Shown here: positions 10,478 to 22,810 of the stretch, in pieces
Numbering within the stretch: position 1 is the stretch's first letter
How the letters are laid out: every line of letters begins with the position of its first letter
The notes under the pieces: generated by a model
Told to the model about the DNA's origin: nothing
Seen by the model: only the letters and a program-made list of their open reading frames with translations
Databases searched by the model: none
Assembly (NCBI GenBank): GCA_900617105.1
Contig: UYFQ01000506.1
Span: forward strand, 1-64,000
Direction: 5' to 3'
DNA: 64,000 bases
Source of the DNA: Hydrurus foetidus
Lineage: Eukaryota
Position numbers and translations under genes: made by a program

Positions 10478-12644
10478 TTAAGCCTCCCAACCCTTGTCCA
10501 CCGCCCAGACCGCGAAGGCGTAGTCCAGGGCGATCTCCTTGAGGAAGTCGAACCGGCCCGAGGCCCCGCCGTGGCCGGCGTCCATGTTGATCTTCAGCAG
10601 GACGGGCCGGCCGCTGGTGCTGGCCGGGCGCAGCTTGGCCACCCACTTCTCGGGCTCCCAGTAGGTGACGCGCGGGTCCGACAGACCGCCCGTGGCCAGC
10701 ACCGCCGGATAGGGCTTGGCCTCGACATTGTCATAGGGGCTGTAGCTGGCGATGTAGTCATAGGCCGCCGCGTCCTCCAGCGGATTGCCCCATTCGGGCC
10801 ATTCGGGCGGGGTCAGGGGCAGGGAGGTGTCGCTCATGGTGTTGACCACGTCGACGAAGGGCACTGCGGCGATGATCCCGGCGAACAGGTCGGGCCGCAT
10901 GTTGGTGATCGCCCCCATCAGCAGGCCGCCGGCCGAGCCGCCATAGGCCACGGTATTGGCAGGCTTGCCGTAGCCGGCCCCATGCAGGTGCTCGGCGCAG
11001 GCGATGAAGTCGGTGAAGGTGTTCTTCTTCCTGTCCTTCTTGCCGTCCAGGAACCAGCTCCAGCCCTTTTCAGAGCCGCCGCGCGGGCAGGCCGTGGCCC
11101 AGATCCAGCCGCGATCCACCAGCGAGAAATTGCGGATCGAGAAGCTGGCCTCCATCGAGATGCCGTAGCTGCCGTAGCCGTAGAGGAGCAGCGGCGCCGA
11201 GCCGTCCAGCTTTGTGCCCTTCTTCATCAGGATGAAGACCGGCACCTCTGTCCCATCGCTGGCCTTGGCGTTCAGGCGGCGGGTCTCGTACTGGCTGGGA
11301 TCGTGGCCCGAGGGGATTTCCTGGGTCTTGCGCAGGGTCCGCTCGCGCGTCGCCATGTCGTAGTCGAACCACTGCCGGGGCGTGGTCATGGAGTTGTAGA
11401 CGAAGCGCACCGTGGTGGTGTCGTACTCGTAGCCGCCCTCCAGGCTCAGCGCATAGGCGGCCTCGTCGAAGTCGACGACGTGCTCCTCGCCCGCTTTCGC
11501 CGTGATGACGATGCGGTTGACCGCGTCCACCTTTTCCAGCCGCGCGAAGTGGTTCTGGAAGGCGATCATGCCGACGATCAGCCGGCCGGGCGTGTGGGCC
11601 ACCCAGTCCTTCCAGTGGGTCTTGCCGGGCGTGGCTTGTGGCGCGGTGACCAGCTTCCAGTCGACGGCGCCGTCGGCGTTGGTGCGGATCACGAAGTGGT
11701 CGTTCCAGTGGTCCAGCTCGTAGCGCAGGCCGACCTGGCGCGGCTCGACGACCACCGGCTTGGCGGTCGGGTCGCCGGCCGGGATCAGCAGGGTCTCGCT
11801 GGTCTCCTGGTTGCCGCAGCTGATGACGATGAACGTCTCGGACGACACCGTGCCGACGCCGATGAAGAAGCCTTCGTCGGGCTCGTCATAGATCAGCACG
11901 TCGTCCTTGGCGCCGCCGCGGGCCGGGCGGCGATGGATGCGAGCGGGCGGCCATTGTCGTCCCGGAAGGTCCAGAACAGCCACTGGCTGTCGGGCGAGAA
12001 GCAGAAGTCGCCGGTGGTGCTTTCGACCGGGCTTTCCAGCACCGCGCCGGTCGCCAGGTCCTTGACGTGGATGCGATAGACTTCCGAACCCTGCTCATCG
12101 ATCGCAAAGGCATAGAGCCTGTGGTCCGGCGAATGGCTGGCGGCGCCGACCTGGTAGAAGGCCTTGCCCTTGGCCTCTTCGTCCAGCAGGATCTGCTCGG
12201 CCCCGCCGCCCCTGGGCTTGCGGGCATGGATCGGGTGCTGCGCCCCGGTCTCGAAGCGGGTGTAGTATTCCCACAGACCGTCGGGGGCGGGGACGGAGGC
12301 GTCGTCCTGCTTGATGCGGCCCTTCATCTCCTCGAACATCGCCGTCTGCAGCGCCTCGGTCGAGGCCAGCATGGCCTTGGTGTAGGCGTTCTCGGCGGTC
12401 AGGTGTTCCTTGACGTCGGCCTTGATCAGCGACGGGTCGCGCAGGACCTTCTGCCAGTTGTCGTCCTTCATCCACGCATAGTCGTCGGTCCGCACCCGGC
12501 CCAGCTGCTCGATGCGCTTGGGCTCCCTGGCGACGGCGGGACGGGGCGAGCGGCTTTGGATGCGGACATGGAGATCCCGGGAATGAAAACTGGACTTGAA
12601 GTAAGCACGGCGGCCGCGCTCGTCATCATCTGACGTCGGTTCAT
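10478..12644 (-). CDS. ptrB: S9A oligopeptidase B (protease II) with twin-arginine-like N-terminus (frameshifted)
   Basis: DDYAWM, YGYGSYG, GGSAGG, DPRV, AGHGG. Confidence 0.9.
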
Positions 12645-15664: not shown

Positions 15665-15705
15665 AAGTACCATTCGCCGAATGTTCGGCTTAGTGGAGAA
15701 AACAG

Positions 15706-16311
15706 ATGAACCGCACCATCCTGCTCACTATCGCAGCCCTGGCCGTCGCTGGTACTGCCCAAGCTCAAACGATCAACAATGGCCAAACCAACAGCTCGAA
15801 TATTCGCGCCAAGCTCAATGCGACGGTCAGCGATGTTCAAGACAAGGTTGCCCTGACTGCGGCTGGTATCGGCAACAGCGTCACTCTGGAAGGCGCCACG
15901 GCCAACACCATCAACAATACGCAGCGCTTCTTCGGCGATGTTTCGTCTGAGCTGAACGCGACCGTCCGCAATGTTGGCAAGAGCGTCGACGCGACTTCGG
16001 CGGCGATCGCCAATACCGCTTCGATCAAGGCCGACTATGTCAACGTCGTGAACAATGTTCAGTACGCCAACTATGATCCGACCGCCGTCCTCAACGCCAC
16101 CCTGACCGATATCAGCGGCGAAGTGAACGCGACCGCTGCAGCGATCAGCAACACGGCCACCATCGAAGCCGATCTGGGCCAGGTCAACTCGACCCAGATC
16201 AACTACGCCGCCGTCAACGCCACCGCCAACACGACCATTCGCAATGTCAGCGACTCGGTCTCGGCGACGGCCGCAGCCATCGGCAACACCCTGTCCGTCA
16301 AGGGTTTCTAA
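15706..16311 (+). CDS. Secreted Asn/Thr/Ala-rich protein with four ~46-aa repeats (HfaD/curlin-like candidate amyloid subunit)
   Basis: Sec signal ending AQA; repeats N[NS]xQ..LNAT..VxATxAAIxN x4; no Cys; RBS GGAGA. Confidence 0.75.
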   Translation: MNRTILLTIAALAVAGTAQAQTINNGQTNSSNIRAKLNATVSDVQDKVALTAAGIGNSVTLEGATANTINNTQRFFGDVSSELNATVRNVGKSVDATSAAIANTASIKADYVNVVNNVQYANYDPTAVLNATLTDISGEVNATAAAISNTATIEADLGQVNSTQINYAAVNATANTTIRNVSDSVSATAAAIGNTLSVKGF

Positions 16312-16319
16312 GTCGGCAC

Positions 16320-16354
16320 AAGGACGCTCGTTGAGCGCTCGCGAGCGTCCTTTA
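16320..16354 (+). terminator. Intra-operon stem-loop after the repeat-protein gene
   Basis: AAGGACGCTCG...CGAGCGTCCTT followed by TA. Confidence 0.6.
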
Positions 16355-16402
16355 CTCCCGCTTTCAGCCGCGCCTTTTCCATCCTCTTCCAGGACCTGTC
16401 CC

Positions 16403-16840
16403 ATGCTCAAGATGTTCACGCCGGCCCTGACCGTCGCCCTGATCGCCCTGCCTGTTCAGGGCGGAGCGCAGACCCTGGGTCGCGACGGAATCGGCAGCCT
16501 CGAAGCCGGCTACGGCAATGCCCGGGCCATGGAGACCGAGCGCTTCAATCCTTCCACCCGCGACAGCCAGGGCAACCGCATCATCAAGGATGGTGTGATC
16601 CAGAGCGGCGTCGGCGGCAGCCAGATCACCACCAACACCAATAGCGCCGTCTATGGCGCGGCCTTTTTCGAGAGCGGCGCCAGCAACAGCGCCACCGCGA
16701 TCGGCAATCTGGTCAATGTCACGGTTGAGGGATCGAACAATACGGTCGTGCTCAACAGTGTTCAGACCAATACCGGATCGGTTTCGGCCACGGCTGTTCT
16801 CAATGGCTCGGCCGCCAAATCGACCGGGTCCAGCCAGTAG
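16403..16840 (+). CDS. HfaA-like (holdfast anchor family) secreted protein
   Basis: Signal peptide; STRDSQGNRIIKDG; SATAIGNLVNVTVEGSNNTVVLNSVQTNTGSVSA. Confidence 0.75.
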   Translation: MLKMFTPALTVALIALPVQGGAQTLGRDGIGSLEAGYGNARAMETERFNPSTRDSQGNRIIKDGVIQSGVGGSQITTNTNSAVYGAAFFESGASNSATAIGNLVNVTVEGSNNTVVLNSVQTNTGSVSATAVLNGSAAKSTGSSQ

Positions 16841-16882: not shown

Positions 16883-17722
16883 ATGTTGATCGCTCGCGCC
16901 CTGGGGGCCGCAGGCCTTGCGGCGGCGATCCTCGCCGTTGCGCCGCCGAGCCTGGCTGCCGAAGCGGGCGGTGACTATGCGCGGCCGATCGGCGATGCGC
17001 CGGCCACCCGCAACCCGACGCCCTATACGCCGGCCCTGATCTGCCTGGCGCGCCAGCCGCTGAGCCGGCCGATGCCGCGCATCTCGGTCGGACGGATCTC
17101 TGACATGACCGGCAAGTCCGACTTCGAGACCGGCGCCAAGATCAGCCAGGGGGCCTCGCTGTTTGCGATCACGGCGCTCGGCAAGGCGGGCTTTCCGGTG
17201 GTCGAGCGGCTGGACAATTCCGTGGCCGAGATCGAGCTCAACTATGCCCGCCAGCGCCTGCTGTCCGACACGCCCGAACTGGCCGGCAGCAGCGGTGACA
17301 ATTTCCGCCGCATCCTGGCCGGTCAGATCGCCGGCTCGTCCTACTATATCGTCGGCGGCATCACGGAGCTGAACTACAACATCCGCTCGACCGGCGCCGA
17401 CGCCCAGATCGGCGACCGGGGTTTGAATGGTGTGCGGGCCGGCGCGGCGGGCCAGACCTATGTGCTCAATATCGCCATCGATCTTCGGCTCGTAAACTCA
17501 CGCTCCCAGGAGGTGGTCGACATGGTCTCGTATCAGAAGCAGCTGGTCGGACGCAGTCTTGACCTTGGCCTGACCGCCGGAGATGACCGGATCGGCGCAG
17601 CAGCCTCCTATGGCCGCAGCGGCATGGAGCCGATGCAGGCCGCCGTTCGCACCCTGGTCGAGCGCGGCGTGTTCGAGATGATCGCCGGCTTCCGTGGGGG
17701 AGGCGAAGAATCTTTGCCTTGA
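16883..17722 (+). CDS. CsgG/HfaB family outer-membrane secretion protein, paralog 1 (no lipobox; C-terminus probably frameshifted, may extend to ~17803)
   Basis: PIGDAP..NPTPY..ALICL, VGRISDMTGK, VVER, YIVGGITELNYNIRS, IAIDLRLV, SYQKQ, EPMQ.AVR. Confidence 0.85.
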   Translation: MLIARALGAAGLAAAILAVAPPSLAAEAGGDYARPIGDAPATRNPTPYTPALICLARQPLSRPMPRISVGRISDMTGKSDFETGAKISQGASLFAITALGKAGFPVVERLDNSVAEIELNYARQRLLSDTPELAGSSGDNFRRILAGQIAGSSYYIVGGITELNYNIRSTGADAQIGDRGLNGVRAGAAGQTYVLNIAIDLRLVNSRSQEVVDMVSYQKQLVGRSLDLGLTAGDDRIGAAASYGRSGMEPMQAAVRTLVERGVFEMIAGFRGGGEESLP

Positions 17723-17802
17723 TCCGGTAACCGAACCGCAGGGCCCGCGCTCCCGGCCTATGCGGCCTCGCGGACCGTTCAAGCCCAACCGAGGACCTGG
17801 TG

Positions 17803-18857
17803 ATGTCTCAAGACCTGGGCCTGATTGCCGGCCGTCACAGTGCACGGATCGCCGCGACCCTGGTCGCGCTGATGCTGGCCGGCTGCGCCTCGACCACAGC
17901 CGACAAGGTCACGGGTCTCTATGCCCAGCCCATCGGCGACGCCCCTGCGACCACCAATCCGACGCAGTATTCGTCGGCCCTGACCTGTCTGGCGTCGAAT
18001 GCCGCCGCGACCGGGCGGGCGTCGCCCCGGGTGGCGGTCGGCGCCATTGCCGATCTGACCGGCAAGCGCGACATCACGACCGGGGCCAAGGTCAGCCAGG
18101 GCGCGTCGCTGTTCGCGATCAGCGCCCTGGGCAAGGCCGGCCTGCGGCTGGTGGAGCGGAGCGATCGGGGCATTTCCGATACCGAACTGGCCTATGCCCA
18201 GAACCACACCCTGTCGGACTCTCCGGAAAAGGCGGGCTCCGACCCCGAAAACTATCGCCCCATCTATGCCGGACAGATCGCCGGCTCTGACTTCTACATT
18301 GTCGGCGGGCTTACGGAGCTGAACTACAATATCCGCTCGTCGGGCGTGGATGCGCGTGGCGGTGATGTGGGGACGGGCGGGCTGAAGGGGTCGCTGACCG
18401 GCAGCACCTATGTGATCAACATCGCCATCGACATGCGCATGGTCGACTCCCGCTCGCAGGAGATCATCGACATCACGTCGTACCAGAAGCAGATCATCGG
18501 CCGGGAGATCAAACCCGGCGTGTTCGACTTCTGAACGGCAATGTCATCGACGTGTCCGGCGGCAAGAGCGAGCTGGAGCCCATGCAGCTGGCGGCCCGCA
18601 CCCTGGTCGAGCGCAGCATCTATGACTTCGCCAGCACGCTGCTGCAGGTCAAGCCGACCCAATGCCTGAACGAGCAGGGTGACGGCGCCCGGCCTCGCCA
18701 GGCGCGCCCCGTCCAGAGCGTCCAGGCCCCGCCAGTTGCCGCGCCGGCGCCCAAACAGGCCGCTCCGGCGGTCGCCGCGCCAGCCTACAACGGCCCGTAC
18801 CTGGATCGCTCGCGCTGGCTGGCCCCGGACCGGGGCGCGGCTCCCAACCGGCCCTAG
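17803..18857 (+). CDS. CsgG/HfaB family lipoprotein, paralog 2 (frameshift near 18531)
   Basis: LAGC lipobox; same CsgG/HfaB motifs as paralog 1; restoring one base joins DF[L]NGNVIDVSGG..EPMQLAARTLVER. Confidence 0.85.
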
Positions 18858-18867
18858 GCCCTAGGCT

Positions 18868-20389
18868 CTAGGTCTTGGCCCAGTAGGCATCCCGGATCAG
18901 CCGCTTGTAGAGCTTGCCCGTCGCATGGCGGGCAGCTCCTGCATGAAGTCGATGCGGCGCGGCGATTTCACGTGGCTGAGATTGGCGCGCACGAAGGCCA
19001 TCAGCTCGTCGGCGAGATCAGAGTGATCCTCGGCCCAGGCCAGGGGCTGGATCACCGCCACGACCTTTTCGCCCATCTCCTCGCACGGCGCCCCGACCAC
19101 GGCGGCGTCGGCCACCATGGGGTGGGTGATCAGCAGGTTCTCGATCTCCTGCGGATAGATGTTCACCCCGCCGCTGATGATCATGAAGCTCTTGCGGTCG
19201 GTCAGGTAGAGGTAGCCCTCCTCGTCGACCCAGCCCACGTCGCCCAGGGTGGTCCAGCCGTGCTGGTTGTAGCTCTCGGCGGTCTTGTCCGGGGCGTTGT
19301 GATAGTTCACCGCCGGGCCGTTGGCGAAATAGACCGCGCCCTCGGTGCGGGGCGGAACGGGATTGCCGTCCTCATCGCAGATGCGCAGTTCGCCCAGCAC
19401 GGCCTGGCCGACGCTGCCCTTGTGGGTCAGCCAGTTCTGCGAATTGATCCAGCAGAAGCCGTTGCCCTCGGTGCCGGCATAGTATTCGAAGATCGCCGGG
19501 CCCCACCAGGCGATCATCTGTTCCTTGACCGGAACCGGGCAGGGGGCGGCGGCGTGGACGGCCGATTGCATCGACGAGACGTCGTACTTGGCGCGGGTCT
19601 CTTCGGGCAGTTTCAGCATCCGCACGAAGTGGGTCGGCACGAACTGGCCGCAGGTGACCTTGTACTTTTCGATCAGGGCCAGGGCGGCCTCGGGATCGAA
19701 CTTCTCCATCACGATCACCGTGCCGCCCAGCTTGTGGACGCTCATGCACCAGCGCAGCGGCGCGGCGTGATAGAGCGGGGCGGGGGACAGATAGACGCTG
19801 TCACCACTGAAGCCGAACAGGCCCTGGGCCATCATCTGCAGGGCGTTGGGCTGGTCGATCGGGCCGCCGTTCAGCGCCGGCTTGACGCCCTTGGGTCGGC
19901 CGGTGGTGCCCGACGAATACAGCATGTCCGAGCCGGCGCTCTCATCGGCGATCGGGGTGTCGGGCATGGCGGCGCGGGCCGCCTCGAAGTCGGCATAGGC
20001 GCCATGGGCGCCGCCCACCGTGTAGAGTTTCAGGCCCGGAACCAGCGCGGGGATTTCGTCGATCAGCGACCCCATCGCCACCGAGGTGATGAACACCTTG
20101 GCCCCGCAGTCCTGCAGGATGTACTGGGTTTCGGCCGCCGTCAGCTTGGTCGAGACGCAGACATAATAGAGCCCCGCGCGCTGGGCGGCCCAGGCGATCT
20201 CGAAGAACCGGGCATTGTTCTCCATCAGGATGGCGATGACGTCGCCGGTCTGCAGGCCCAGCGAGCGCAACAGTTGCGCCCCTGGTTGGAGCGGGCGTCC
20301 AGCTGGCCGTAGGTCACGACCTCGCCGGAGCCGGCCATGATGTAGGCGGGCTTTTGCGGTTGTGTCTGGGCGTGGATGAAGGGGTGCAT
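18868..20389 (-). CDS. Acyl-CoA synthetase (AMP-binding; frameshifts near both ends)
   Basis: YSSGTTGRPKG, EYYAGTE, TLGD, DRKSFMIISGGVNIYPQEIE. Confidence 0.9.
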
Positions 20390-20424
20390 GCCGGAAGCCT
20401 CGGATGACTTTGTTGGAGATTTGA

Positions 20425-20443
20425 TCTAGATTGCTTGTCTAGA
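20425..20443. promoter_or_regulatory. Probable vapBC autoregulatory operator
   Basis: TCTAGA-N7-TCTAGA dyad just upstream of the vapB RBS. Confidence 0.5.
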
Positions 20444-20453
20444 AACGGAGGTT

Positions 20454-20753
20454 GTGGTGGCGCTCAGCATCAAGACCGAAGAAGCCGACCGCCTGGCGCG
20501 CGACCTGTCCCGCCTGACCGGCGAGACCATGACCCAGGCCGTGACCGTGGCCCTGCGCGAGCGGCTGGAGCGCGAGCGGGCCGCCAAGACCGAGACGACG
20601 GAAGAGTTCGTCGCGCGGATCATGGCGTACACAGCCAAGATGCGAGAAGGAGTCGACTGTCGGCCGATCACGCCTGAAGAGTGGCTGGACGCTGGCGGCG
20701 ACGACCTTGACCATGAGCTTGCCGCCAAGGAAAAGGCCCAGGCCCAGCGCTGA
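20454..20753 (+). CDS. vapB: VapB antitoxin (Rv0623-like)
   Basis: [41 protein letters not shown] coupling to vapC. Confidence 0.85.
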
Positions 20754-21140
20754 TGGTCATCGACACCTCGGCGATCATCGCCATCATCCTTGGCGAGACC
20801 GCTGAGCCGCGCTTGCTCGCAAGAATCGAGGCCGCGAGCGTTCGCGAACTGTCGATGGTCAGCTATGTCGAGGCTGCCACCGTCTTGCTGGCGCGGAATA
20901 TGCCTGGCGCGGCTTGAAGGCTTGCATGGAACGTCTCGCCATCATCCTGGTCCCCGTCGACGAGGCCCAGGGCGCGCCGCCATCAGGGCCAGGATGGCGT
21001 ACGGCAAGGGCACGGGCCATCCCGCCAAGCTGAACCTCGGCGACACCTTCACCTATGCCCTGGCCAAGGTGCGCGGCGCGCCGCTGCTGTTCGTGGGCGA
21101 AGATTTTTCCCATACCGATCTCGTCTCCGCCCTGGCCTGA
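20753..21140 (+). CDS. vapC: VapC PIN-domain toxin (frameshifted)
   Basis: [43 protein letters not shown]. Confidence 0.85.
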
Positions 21141-21142
21141 TT

Positions 21143-22810
21143 TCACGCCGCGACGGGGGTCTTGGCGGCCTGCAGGATCATGGCCGCGCCCTTCTCGCCG
21201 ATCATGATGGTGGGGGCGTTGGTGTTGCCCGAGACCAGGCGCGGCATGATCGAGGCGTCGACGACCCGCAGGCCGTCCACACCGCGCACCCGCAGCTGGG
21301 CGTCGACCACGGCCATGGGCCCGCTGCCCATCGCGCAGGTGCCGACCGGGTGATAGAGGGTCGAGCCCGAGGCCTTGGCATATTCGAGCAGCATCTCGTC
21401 GCTCTCGAAGCCGGGGCCGGGGTTCATCTCCTGCTCGACATATTTGGCGATGGCCGGCTGCTCGCCGATCTTGCGCGCCCATTTGAGGCCGGCGATCGCG
21501 ACCTCCTGGTCCAGCGGATCGGCCAGATAGTTGGCGACGATGGCCGGATACTGCGACGGATCAGCTGACTTGATATGGATCGTGCCGCGGCTTTCCGGGC
21601 GCAGCTGGCAGGGCGCGATGGTCATGCCTGGCGCGTCCTCCAGCTCCATCTTCTGCTCGTTGAACAGCTTGTCCAGATCCATGGTGGCCGGCAGGATGTG
21701 GAACTGGATGTCCGGGCCTGACAGATCGGGCCGGGATTTGCAGAAGGCGGCGACATGCGCCGCCGACAGGGTCAGCAGGCCCTTGCGGAACAGCACATAT
21801 TTCAGCGCCTGGCCCGCCAGTTGGGCGCCCTTGCTCATGGCGTTGATCGACGGCGCGCCGGCCTTCAGGCGGTAGCGCACGCCGGTCAGATAGTGGTCCT
21901 GCAGATTCTCGCCGACGCCGGGAAGGTCGGAAACGACCGCGATGCCGCGCTGGCGCAGCAACTCGCCATTGCCGATGCCCGACAGTTCCAGAAGCTGGGG
22001 CGAATTGATCGCTCCGCCGGCCAGGATCACCTCGGCCCGGGCCTTGGCGGTGCGCTTGACGCCGTTCTGCACGAATTCGACGCCGGCGGCGCGCTTGCCC
22101 TCGAAGATCACGCGGCTGGCCAGGGCGTTGGTTTCGACCTGCAGGTTCGCCCGCTTCATGGCCGGGTGCAGATAGGCGACAGCGGCCGAGCAGCGCGCGC
22201 CGTTCTTCTGGGTCACCTGATACCAGGTGGCGCCTTCCTGATCCTTGCCGTTCAGGTCGTCATAGCGGGGGATGCCGGCCTGGTCGCAGGCCTCGATCAG
22301 GGCCTCTGAAATGACGTTGCCGTCGCGCATGTCGGAGACGTTCAGCGGGCCGCCGGTCGCGTGCAGGTCGCTGGCCCCGCGCTCCTGGTTCTGCGACTTG
22401 CGGAACCAGGGCAGGACGTCGTCCCAGGCCCAGCCTTCGCAGCCCAGCTGGCGCCAGCCGTCATAGTCGGCCTGCTGGCCGCGCACATACAGCATGGCGT
22501 TGATCGAGGACGAACCGCCCAGCACCTTGCCGCGCGGCCAGACGTGGGCGCGCCCGCCGGTGCCCGGATCGGGCTCGGTGGTATAGAGCCAGTTGACCTT
22601 GGGGTCCTTGAGGGTCTGGGCATAGCCGACCGGGATGTGGATCATCAGGTTCGAGGCGAACTGCGAGAGGTTCTTGGTCGGCCGATCATCGCCGCCGGCT
22701 TCCAGCAACAGCACCTTGAAGCGACCATCCTCGGAAAGCCGCGCGGCCAGAACGCAGCCGGCCGAACCGGCCCCGACGATGATGTAGTCCGCCTCGATGG
22801 TCGCGCTCAT
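21143..22810 (-). CDS. GMC oxidoreductase (choline/alcohol dehydrogenase-like)
   Basis: [37 protein letters not shown]. Confidence 0.92.

Follow-up and report, generated by a model that had tools for sequence, protein, structure and literature searches.

The locus analyzed here is best compared with the holdfast anchor formed by HfaA, HfaB, and HfaD (plus HfaE) in Caulobacter crescentus and Hirschia baltica. According to the available parts of the papers cited here, HfaA, HfaD, and HfaE are thought to be amyloid-like and HfaB is needed for export (10.1101/2022.07.20.500906), HfaA and HfaD form SDS-resistant multimers whose targeting to the surface needs HfaB (PMC6707917; 10.1101/2022.07.20.500906), HfaAD occupies the outer face and HfaB the periplasmic side (PMC6707917), the gene order hfaA–hfaB–hfaD is conserved (10.1101/523142), and all that tomography of the anchor displays is a broad density at the membrane's outer face (PMC6707917). 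In the literature surveyed, HfaA and HfaD are called amyloid-like without a structure, and our search, outside which lay most subscription papers and supplements, found neither a second hfa-type operon nor an HfaD fold described. Two other secreted amyloids are also relevant, again as described in the parts of the sources available. In curli, head-to-tail stacking has been shown, and the curlin repeat spans 23 ± 5 aa with a QX10Q kernel (PMC10192328). In FapC of Pseudomonas (PDB 9U4U), each cross-β layer is formed by one long imperfect repeat, folded as a bent arch with buried Asn/Gln and carrying the motif GN..G..N..aaG.gNqQN (PMC12392863); the protein has three repeats of 38–39 aa with loose linkers, and its exit route is FapF instead of a CsgG-type pore (PMC12392863, PMC12822426).

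The window, that is, the whole stretch of 64,000 nucleotides that was analyzed, carries an operon whose first gene encodes a repeat protein (table 1). Near-identical genes are found in named Caulobacter records (protein identity 91–100%), L007 coming from a Caulobacter henricii strain, and the nearest genome available, G001, 94.5% identical over 11.4 kb, served as a stand-in for the window. The open reading frame and its four 46-aa repeats are real: the repeats quoted in the original prediction are present letter for letter (46, 46, 46, and 43 aa), and the self-score of the protein (ungapped, off-diagonal) reaches 169 at offset 46, against a mean of 39 and a maximum of 72 for the best offset of 1,000 shuffles. 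The aligned Asn and Gln columns noticed at the time form a regular ladder (Q27/Q73/Q119/Q164 and N57/N103/N149/N194), the TxAxIxN motif starts at residues 51, 97, 143, and 188, and the mature part is, as had been stated, devoid of Cys and endowed with a single Pro. The protein is made of 17% Ala, 14% Asn, 13% Thr, and 9% Ser, and residue A20 of its signal peptide is nearly invariant in the family alignment. The curlin consensus was said to be absent, and no QX10Q kernel is present in the sequence. The proposed division of each repeat into two units of about 23 aa fared differently: the best self-score at offsets 20–26 is 27, a value reached in 421 of the 1,000 shuffles. With dN/dS values of 0.02, 0.13, 0.14, and 0.15 against loci L004–L007, the repeat gene is under purifying selection.

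Table 1. Features of the repeat operon and their positions in the window
Feature	Positions	Strand	Description	Basis
Repeat protein gene	15706..16311	+	201 aa; HfaD-family repeat ×4; proposed major fiber subunit	
Putative signal peptide, type I	15706..15765	+	residues 1–20; cleavage between AQA and Q, first mature codon at 15766; no Cys	inferred from sequence
Repeat 1	15766..15903	+	residues 21–66; Q27, N57	self-score, covariation
Repeat 2	15904..16041	+	residues 67–112; Q73, N103	self-score, covariation
Repeat 3	16042..16179	+	residues 113–158; Q119, N149	self-score, covariation
Repeat 4	16180..16308	+	residues 159–201; Q164, N194; last strand is the protein end	self-score, model, covariation
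Stem-loop	16320..16352	+	outer stem of 11 bp; separated from the stop codon by 8 nt	folding z, conserved in related loci
hfaA-like gene	16403..16840	+	145 aa; permuted match to one repeat over the C-terminal ~43 residues; nucleator/anchor (proposed)	NF037934, 80.9 bits (cut-off 50)
First hfaB/CsgG-like gene	16883..17803	+	307 aa in relatives; without lipobox	NF037935, 378.9 bits (cut-off 300)
Second hfaB/CsgG-like gene	17800..18857	+	352 aa in relatives; with lipobox	NF037935, 349.5 + 32.4 bits

Judged from its sequence, the repeat protein is a half-length homolog of HfaD, with four repeats against about eight in the canonical protein, and is not the HfaD ortholog. Its score against the HfaD equivalog NF037936 is 23.5 bits for the whole protein and 24.4 for the mature part, below the cut-off of 100, and pairwise BLAST to the HfaD of G001 gives a weak match; at the level of the family, 84 of 88 members match NF037936 at E ≤ 0.01, and a profile–profile comparison pairs the family with an HfaD alignment (41 rows, i.e., 24 genome HfaD and 17 database proteins of similar length) at 99.8% and E 4.6e-29. 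Invariant or nearly invariant columns of this alignment (Q11/N41, Q58/N89, Q106/N137, Q154/N184, N231, Q248/N277, Q294/N324, and Q344/N373) display about eight times a Gln–Asn pair 30 apart, the same pair as in the repeat protein, and a permuted form of one repeat is recognized in the last 43 columns of an HfaA alignment (94.5%, E 7.5e-8). PF27277, which is HfaD in Pfam 38.1, is annotated on 14 of 15 homologs and on every one of the 120 listed, in precomputed annotations that concern these homologs rather than the protein itself (nearest cluster 0.95); the copy of Pfam that we scanned, which is without PF27277, holds no family for the repeat protein, and a search of PDB sequences returned chance matches only (best E 0.027 and 0.13).

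The locus departs from the holdfast anchor in several other respects. Canonical HfaD has about 400 aa, with a Cys pair before the last of its approximately eight repeats, and its gene comes last in hfaA–hfaB–hfaD, whereas the 201-aa repeat protein has four repeats and no Cys and is encoded by the first gene of its operon. Members of the HfaA and HfaB families, both above their cut-offs, are co-encoded with it, as in an Hfa system. In other families, a short HfaD-like gene is found in the canonical hfaA–hfaB–hfaD order (L103–L106, L135–L137, L187, L206, and L207), so that the length of HfaD varies from about four to about eight repeats. Homologs as a whole range from about 175 to more than 1,000 aa. 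Some members (P0123, P0126, P0127, and L201) are labeled Rubrimonas or Myxococcales by their sources, these being labels of metagenome bins, and forms of 637–1,089 aa are also encountered; the module may extend beyond holdfast makers.

The company of the repeat gene is conserved. The hfaA-like gene lies directly 3′ of it in 28 of 29 genome loci, and an hfaB-like gene is found in all 20 of the wider loci, 12 of which have two copies; in metagenomes, where several gene orders are seen, an hfaB-like gene is present in 59 of 79 loci and in 33 of the 34 loci of at least 8 kb. Matches to the CsgG-family pore PF03783 occur in the operon of the window at E 1.3e-14 and 2.9e-7, and none of its open reading frames is another csg gene. 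A lipobox is missing from the first HfaB paralog in 11 of the 12 operons scored and present in the second in 12 of 13 and in canonical HfaB in 20 of 20, according to a simple pattern test in which one row has no anchor. The two paralogs (L004–L013, L047–L061, and the window) split into two old subclades in the HfaB tree, and it is possible that they form a mixed pore or that one of them acts as a periplasmic adaptor.

Both pore genes are broken in the window, the first reading to 17722, with bases missing near 17700 and 17744, and the second being split by one missing base near 18530, as judged against L004, L006, L013, and contigs of DNA run X5. Because a neighboring ligase gene is damaged in a like manner at 18930, where the base is present in the closest run, X1 (the listed pieces of which do not span the hfaB sites), these frameshifts are likely errors of assembly or sequencing. 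With a further small gene-breaking indel near 11943, and with relatives and matching contigs intact at these positions, the window looks like an error-prone assembly.

A few observations concern the surroundings of the operon and of its relatives. A second member with six repeats (about 325 aa) lies convergently at the operon end in L052 (5637–6623), L053 (8999–10018), L176, and L184, and two repeat genes are found at L008, L064, L130, L131, L179, and L185. Upstream of the operon, the segment 15440–15600 is AT-rich and variable between close relatives, and is likely the promoter region; it contains no sigma-70 match, and the scan for promoters and terminators gave nothing above chance. Downstream, a stretch at about 20390–21147 is absent from L004 and L013 and includes a 99-aa open reading frame and a following frame, which we take to resemble a toxin–antitoxin pair of the VapBC type.

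From an evolutionary perspective, the repeat operon and the canonical hfaABD operon coexist in G001, at 1.13 and 3.09 Mb, respectively, thus about 2 Mb apart. The family profile finds a match in 59 of 401 Caulobacteraceae genomes, 34 of them at E < 1e-18, the remaining 25 being weak matches in frames of HfaD length (part of them checked); at most seven candidates were scored per genome, so that some members may have been missed. In this set of 401 genomes, 269 have a canonical HfaD above its cut-off, whereas the repeat operon is patchy (34 of 401). As many as 32 of the 34 carriers also hold a canonical HfaD at E ≤ 2e-48, and, as for the two carriers without a strong HfaD match, G063 has a second hfaB and G129 is 88% complete. 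Class-wide, 13 of 401 genomes match; among clusters built at 50% identity, 535 do so at E ≤ 0.001, those of HfaD length included. No match was obtained by tblastn in phage and plasmid records, and none of the 79 pattern matches in viral contigs was confirmed. In quick maximum-likelihood trees, rooted at midpoints only, a branch (SH-aLRT 96) divides the 23 HfaA-like rows from canonical HfaA, and 24 canonical and 6 other-family HfaB are separated from 39 repeat-operon rows and 2 distant rows (SH-aLRT 96). As far as such phylogenies tell, the repeat operon is a separate and old system, paralogous to the holdfast anchor operon.

With regard to the fold, an uncapped β-solenoid had been proposed, and the AlphaFold2 monomer model, built from 88 sequences (pLDDT 97.5, pTM 0.89), is in line with it: residues 2–179 are predicted to form only strands and short turns, which follow one pattern of elements in every repeat, with no helix and no cap elements. 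The conservation of the Gln/Asn ladder in the first and last repeats too agrees with open ends. The same pattern is predicted over 384 residues for the HfaD of G001 (pLDDT 96.4), for which an uncapped all-β fold is thus likewise predicted. According to the available parts of PMC10192328, the handedness that AlphaFold2 gives to solenoids of the CsgA type, which is left-handed and has two strands, is unreliable.

The architecture of a single rung can be approached through covariation. A mean-field coupling analysis was run on 1,114 distinct repeats (effective number 849), left from 1,749 matches once gappy and duplicate rows had been removed; seeds were picked by motif, pairs of gap-rich end columns were ignored, and scores were obtained without a shuffled control. 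In the numbering of repeat 2, the top pairs are F75–V79, Q73–N103, F75–A102, A99–T104, and L83–S98, followed by T97–T104, S81–S98, A85–A96, N71–A105, and I69–I107, with scores of 1.6–3.3 against a mean of −0.01 and a standard deviation of 0.40 over all pairs. These pairs are of the hairpin type and fall into two constant-sum series in steps of two, with no i,i+23 ladder, and therefore describe one β-arch kinked at the Gln–Asn pair rather than two rungs of 23 residues, which indicates one kinked rung per 46-aa repeat and again goes against the half-repeats originally envisaged.

The Greek-key bent arch of FapC is a possible counterpart of such a rung, and covariation fits a kinked arch. Three repeats of the model align on three FapC layers (Z 6.1, rmsd 3.2, 113 residues, 18% identity), and FapC is the only Foldseek match at E ≤ 0.001 (8.8e-4, TM-score 0.11). 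The resemblance lies in the predicted fold: FapC gives no match at E ≤ 10 in the PDB sequence search, its motif is absent from the repeat protein, and, unlike the fapA–F operon with its FapF, the repeat operon has members of the HfaA and HfaB families as its other genes. Of 48,161 chains, the best two are CsgA (Z 7.9, rmsd 7.8, 93 residues) and FapC, both modest matches under the tool's level of Z 8; SufB ties with FapC in a second-look list (Z 6.2), and an insect antifreeze solenoid comes third for the repeat protein model (Z 4.9, rmsd 6.8). The longer HfaD model best matches nonfibrous β-helices, SufB/SufD (Z 14.2) and others (Z and rmsd about 14 and 4 over about 215 residues), and has no Foldseek match at E ≤ 0.001; FapC and CsgA are not among its best 50 structure matches, which does not exclude them. 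A library of viral folds yielded nothing usable (best TM 0.24). Since FapC and CsgA both stay below Z 8, SufB ties with the former, and the HfaD model is nearest to β-helices, we describe the predicted fold as a wide-rung solenoid for which no close solved relative was found.

The idea that the repeat protein is a major subunit, already present in the original prediction, receives indirect support from the first position of its gene, from a conserved intergenic hairpin, and from codon bias. Hairpins of this kind at the 3′ end favor the upstream mRNA. Here, a hairpin with z ≤ −2 follows the repeat gene in 28 of 30 genome loci, the window being one of the 30, and in 35 of 36 distinct metagenome loci, that is, in 63 of 66 in total, when 45-nt segments are compared with 20–25 dinucleotide shuffles each. 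The corresponding control after the hfaA-like gene reaches this value in 2 of 27 genome and 2 of 34 metagenome loci, and the canonical operons do so in 2 of 20 cases after hfaA, 7 of 20 after hfaB, and 6 of 20 after hfaD, these controls being largely coding sequence. Stem sequences are unrelated between metagenome loci, only 5 of 36 of which have a U tract, and the hairpin of the window itself has a z of −4.4 for a 45-nt segment and of only −1.6 when the whole gap is folded. It is likely that this hairpin raises the mRNA of the first gene over that of the downstream genes. As for the codons used in G001, the score of the repeat gene (0.05) falls within the leave-one-out range (0.03–0.15) of a reference made of 12 translation genes beside tuf, the names of which are our assumption, and is higher than that of 57 of 58 background open reading frames; the hfaA-like gene, both hfaB-like genes, and the canonical genes hfaA and hfaD lie between −0.07 and −0.12, with canonical hfaB at −0.06. 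The conserved hairpin and a codon bias at ribosomal level are thus consistent with a major subunit. Contigs of four freshwater or lake RNA libraries overlap parts of the gene with few differences (X17, 15959–16431; X18, 15905–16109; X19, 15694–16159; X20, 15900–16303), and two other RNA runs, X15 and X16, cover much of the flanks too. We do not take them as evidence of abundance, because contigs cannot show transcription or rank genes and because X15 and X16 also cover the flanks.

On the whole, we lean toward the view that the repeat gene encodes the major subunit of an Hfa-type secreted cross-β surface fiber, paralogous to the holdfast anchor. By analogy with curli and Hfa, the subunit would be exported by Sec to the periplasm and pass through an HfaB/CsgG-type outer-membrane pore, often with a lipidated and a nonlipidated paralog. 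Each repeat is predicted to fold as a kinked β-arch rung, in which two arms are zipped together and the Gln–Asn pair is buried at the bend, and four such rungs would make an uncapped solenoid. Following the same analogy, the HfaA-like protein could act as a template through its one terminal rung, and head-to-tail stacking, the last rung on the first, would generate an amyloid-like cross-β fiber, while the hairpin after the repeat gene would keep the subunit in excess over pore and anchor. Such a fiber would likely serve in adhesion or as a biofilm matrix. A long fiber does not follow from an open end, because HfaD is also predicted to be uncapped, yet tomography has only a broad density to offer.

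Another explanation, which we consider less probable though far from negligible, is that the operon encodes an accessory or second holdfast anchor, in which the repeat protein, like HfaD, would join the HfaA-like protein in a short complex resistant to SDS and, in the absence of long fibers, tether to the outer membrane the holdfast or some other polysaccharide. All three types of gene are indeed Hfa homologs, and an accessory role in the holdfast fits equally well, because nearly all carriers (32 of 34) also hold the holdfast anchor. Four repeats may even suffice for such a role, because short HfaD-like proteins, with a core of about 220 aa, occupy the canonical order in other families (L103–L106). 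However, the repeat gene comes first, is followed by a conserved hairpin, and has the codons of highly expressed genes, none of which applies to canonical hfaD; separate HfaA and HfaB lineages are maintained beside an intact hfaABD; and extra copies of the repeat gene exist at L008, L052, L053, L064, and L130. Rather unlikely, in our opinion, is a secreted β-solenoid that does not polymerize or that forms a lattice, i.e., an adhesin, a coat, or an ice- or mineral-binding protein acting through flat Thr/Ser/Asn faces as a monomer or small oligomer. The composition in Ala, Asn, Thr, and Ser, the wide range of homolog lengths, the proximity of the HfaD model to monomeric β-helices, and the third rank of the insect antifreeze solenoid would suit such a protein, but the model has no caps, the buried ladder is fully conserved in the first and last repeats, the partner genes are amyloid-type secretion genes, and the available parts of PMC6707917 and 10.1101/2022.07.20.500906 report SDS-resistant multimers of HfaA and HfaD. 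Finally, a divergent curlin made of eight CsgA-type rungs of 23 aa and exported by CsgG, although evoked by the CsgG-family pore genes of the operon and by the first rank of CsgA in the wide fold search, is very improbable given the lack of a 23-aa periodicity and of the QX10Q kernel, an rmsd to CsgA of 7.8–8.0, a covariation that fits a 46-aa rung, and the absence of any curlin family among the 25 listed of 28 weak Pfam matches of the 88 members, none of which concerns the repeat protein.

The repeat operon shares with curli CsgA/CsgB a CsgG-family pore and an open-ended β-solenoid subunit, the latter predicted here, and departs from them by a repeat of 46 aa with Q-X29-N. More speculatively, the amyloids that bacteria secrete might include, in addition to curli and Fap, a third class represented by the HfaD repeat and defined by a kinked rung of 46 residues, a Fap-like cross-section, and a CsgG-type pore (in many genomes with a lipidated and a nonlipidated paralog). 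The repeat operon would then be the fiber-producing form, and the holdfast anchor a specialized use at low copy, with HfaA as a one-rung seed and HfaD as an eight-rung extension; we hold this broader proposal as tentative, somewhat short of an even bet.

Although the HfaD repeat family is known, a paralogous operon bearing the marks of a bulk fiber subunit is undescribed in the literature surveyed. The analysis of the repeats offers a concrete and testable architecture for proteins hitherto called amyloid-like, in which HfaD would have about eight rungs and HfaA one permuted rung, and the 181-residue, Cys-free protein, with its four predicted rungs, is a much easier object for fiber assays and cryo-EM. 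If fibers do form, CsgG-type pores would export a second class of amyloid subunit, and cultured freshwater Caulobacter (named records L005–L007) would have an undescribed surface fiber beside the holdfast.
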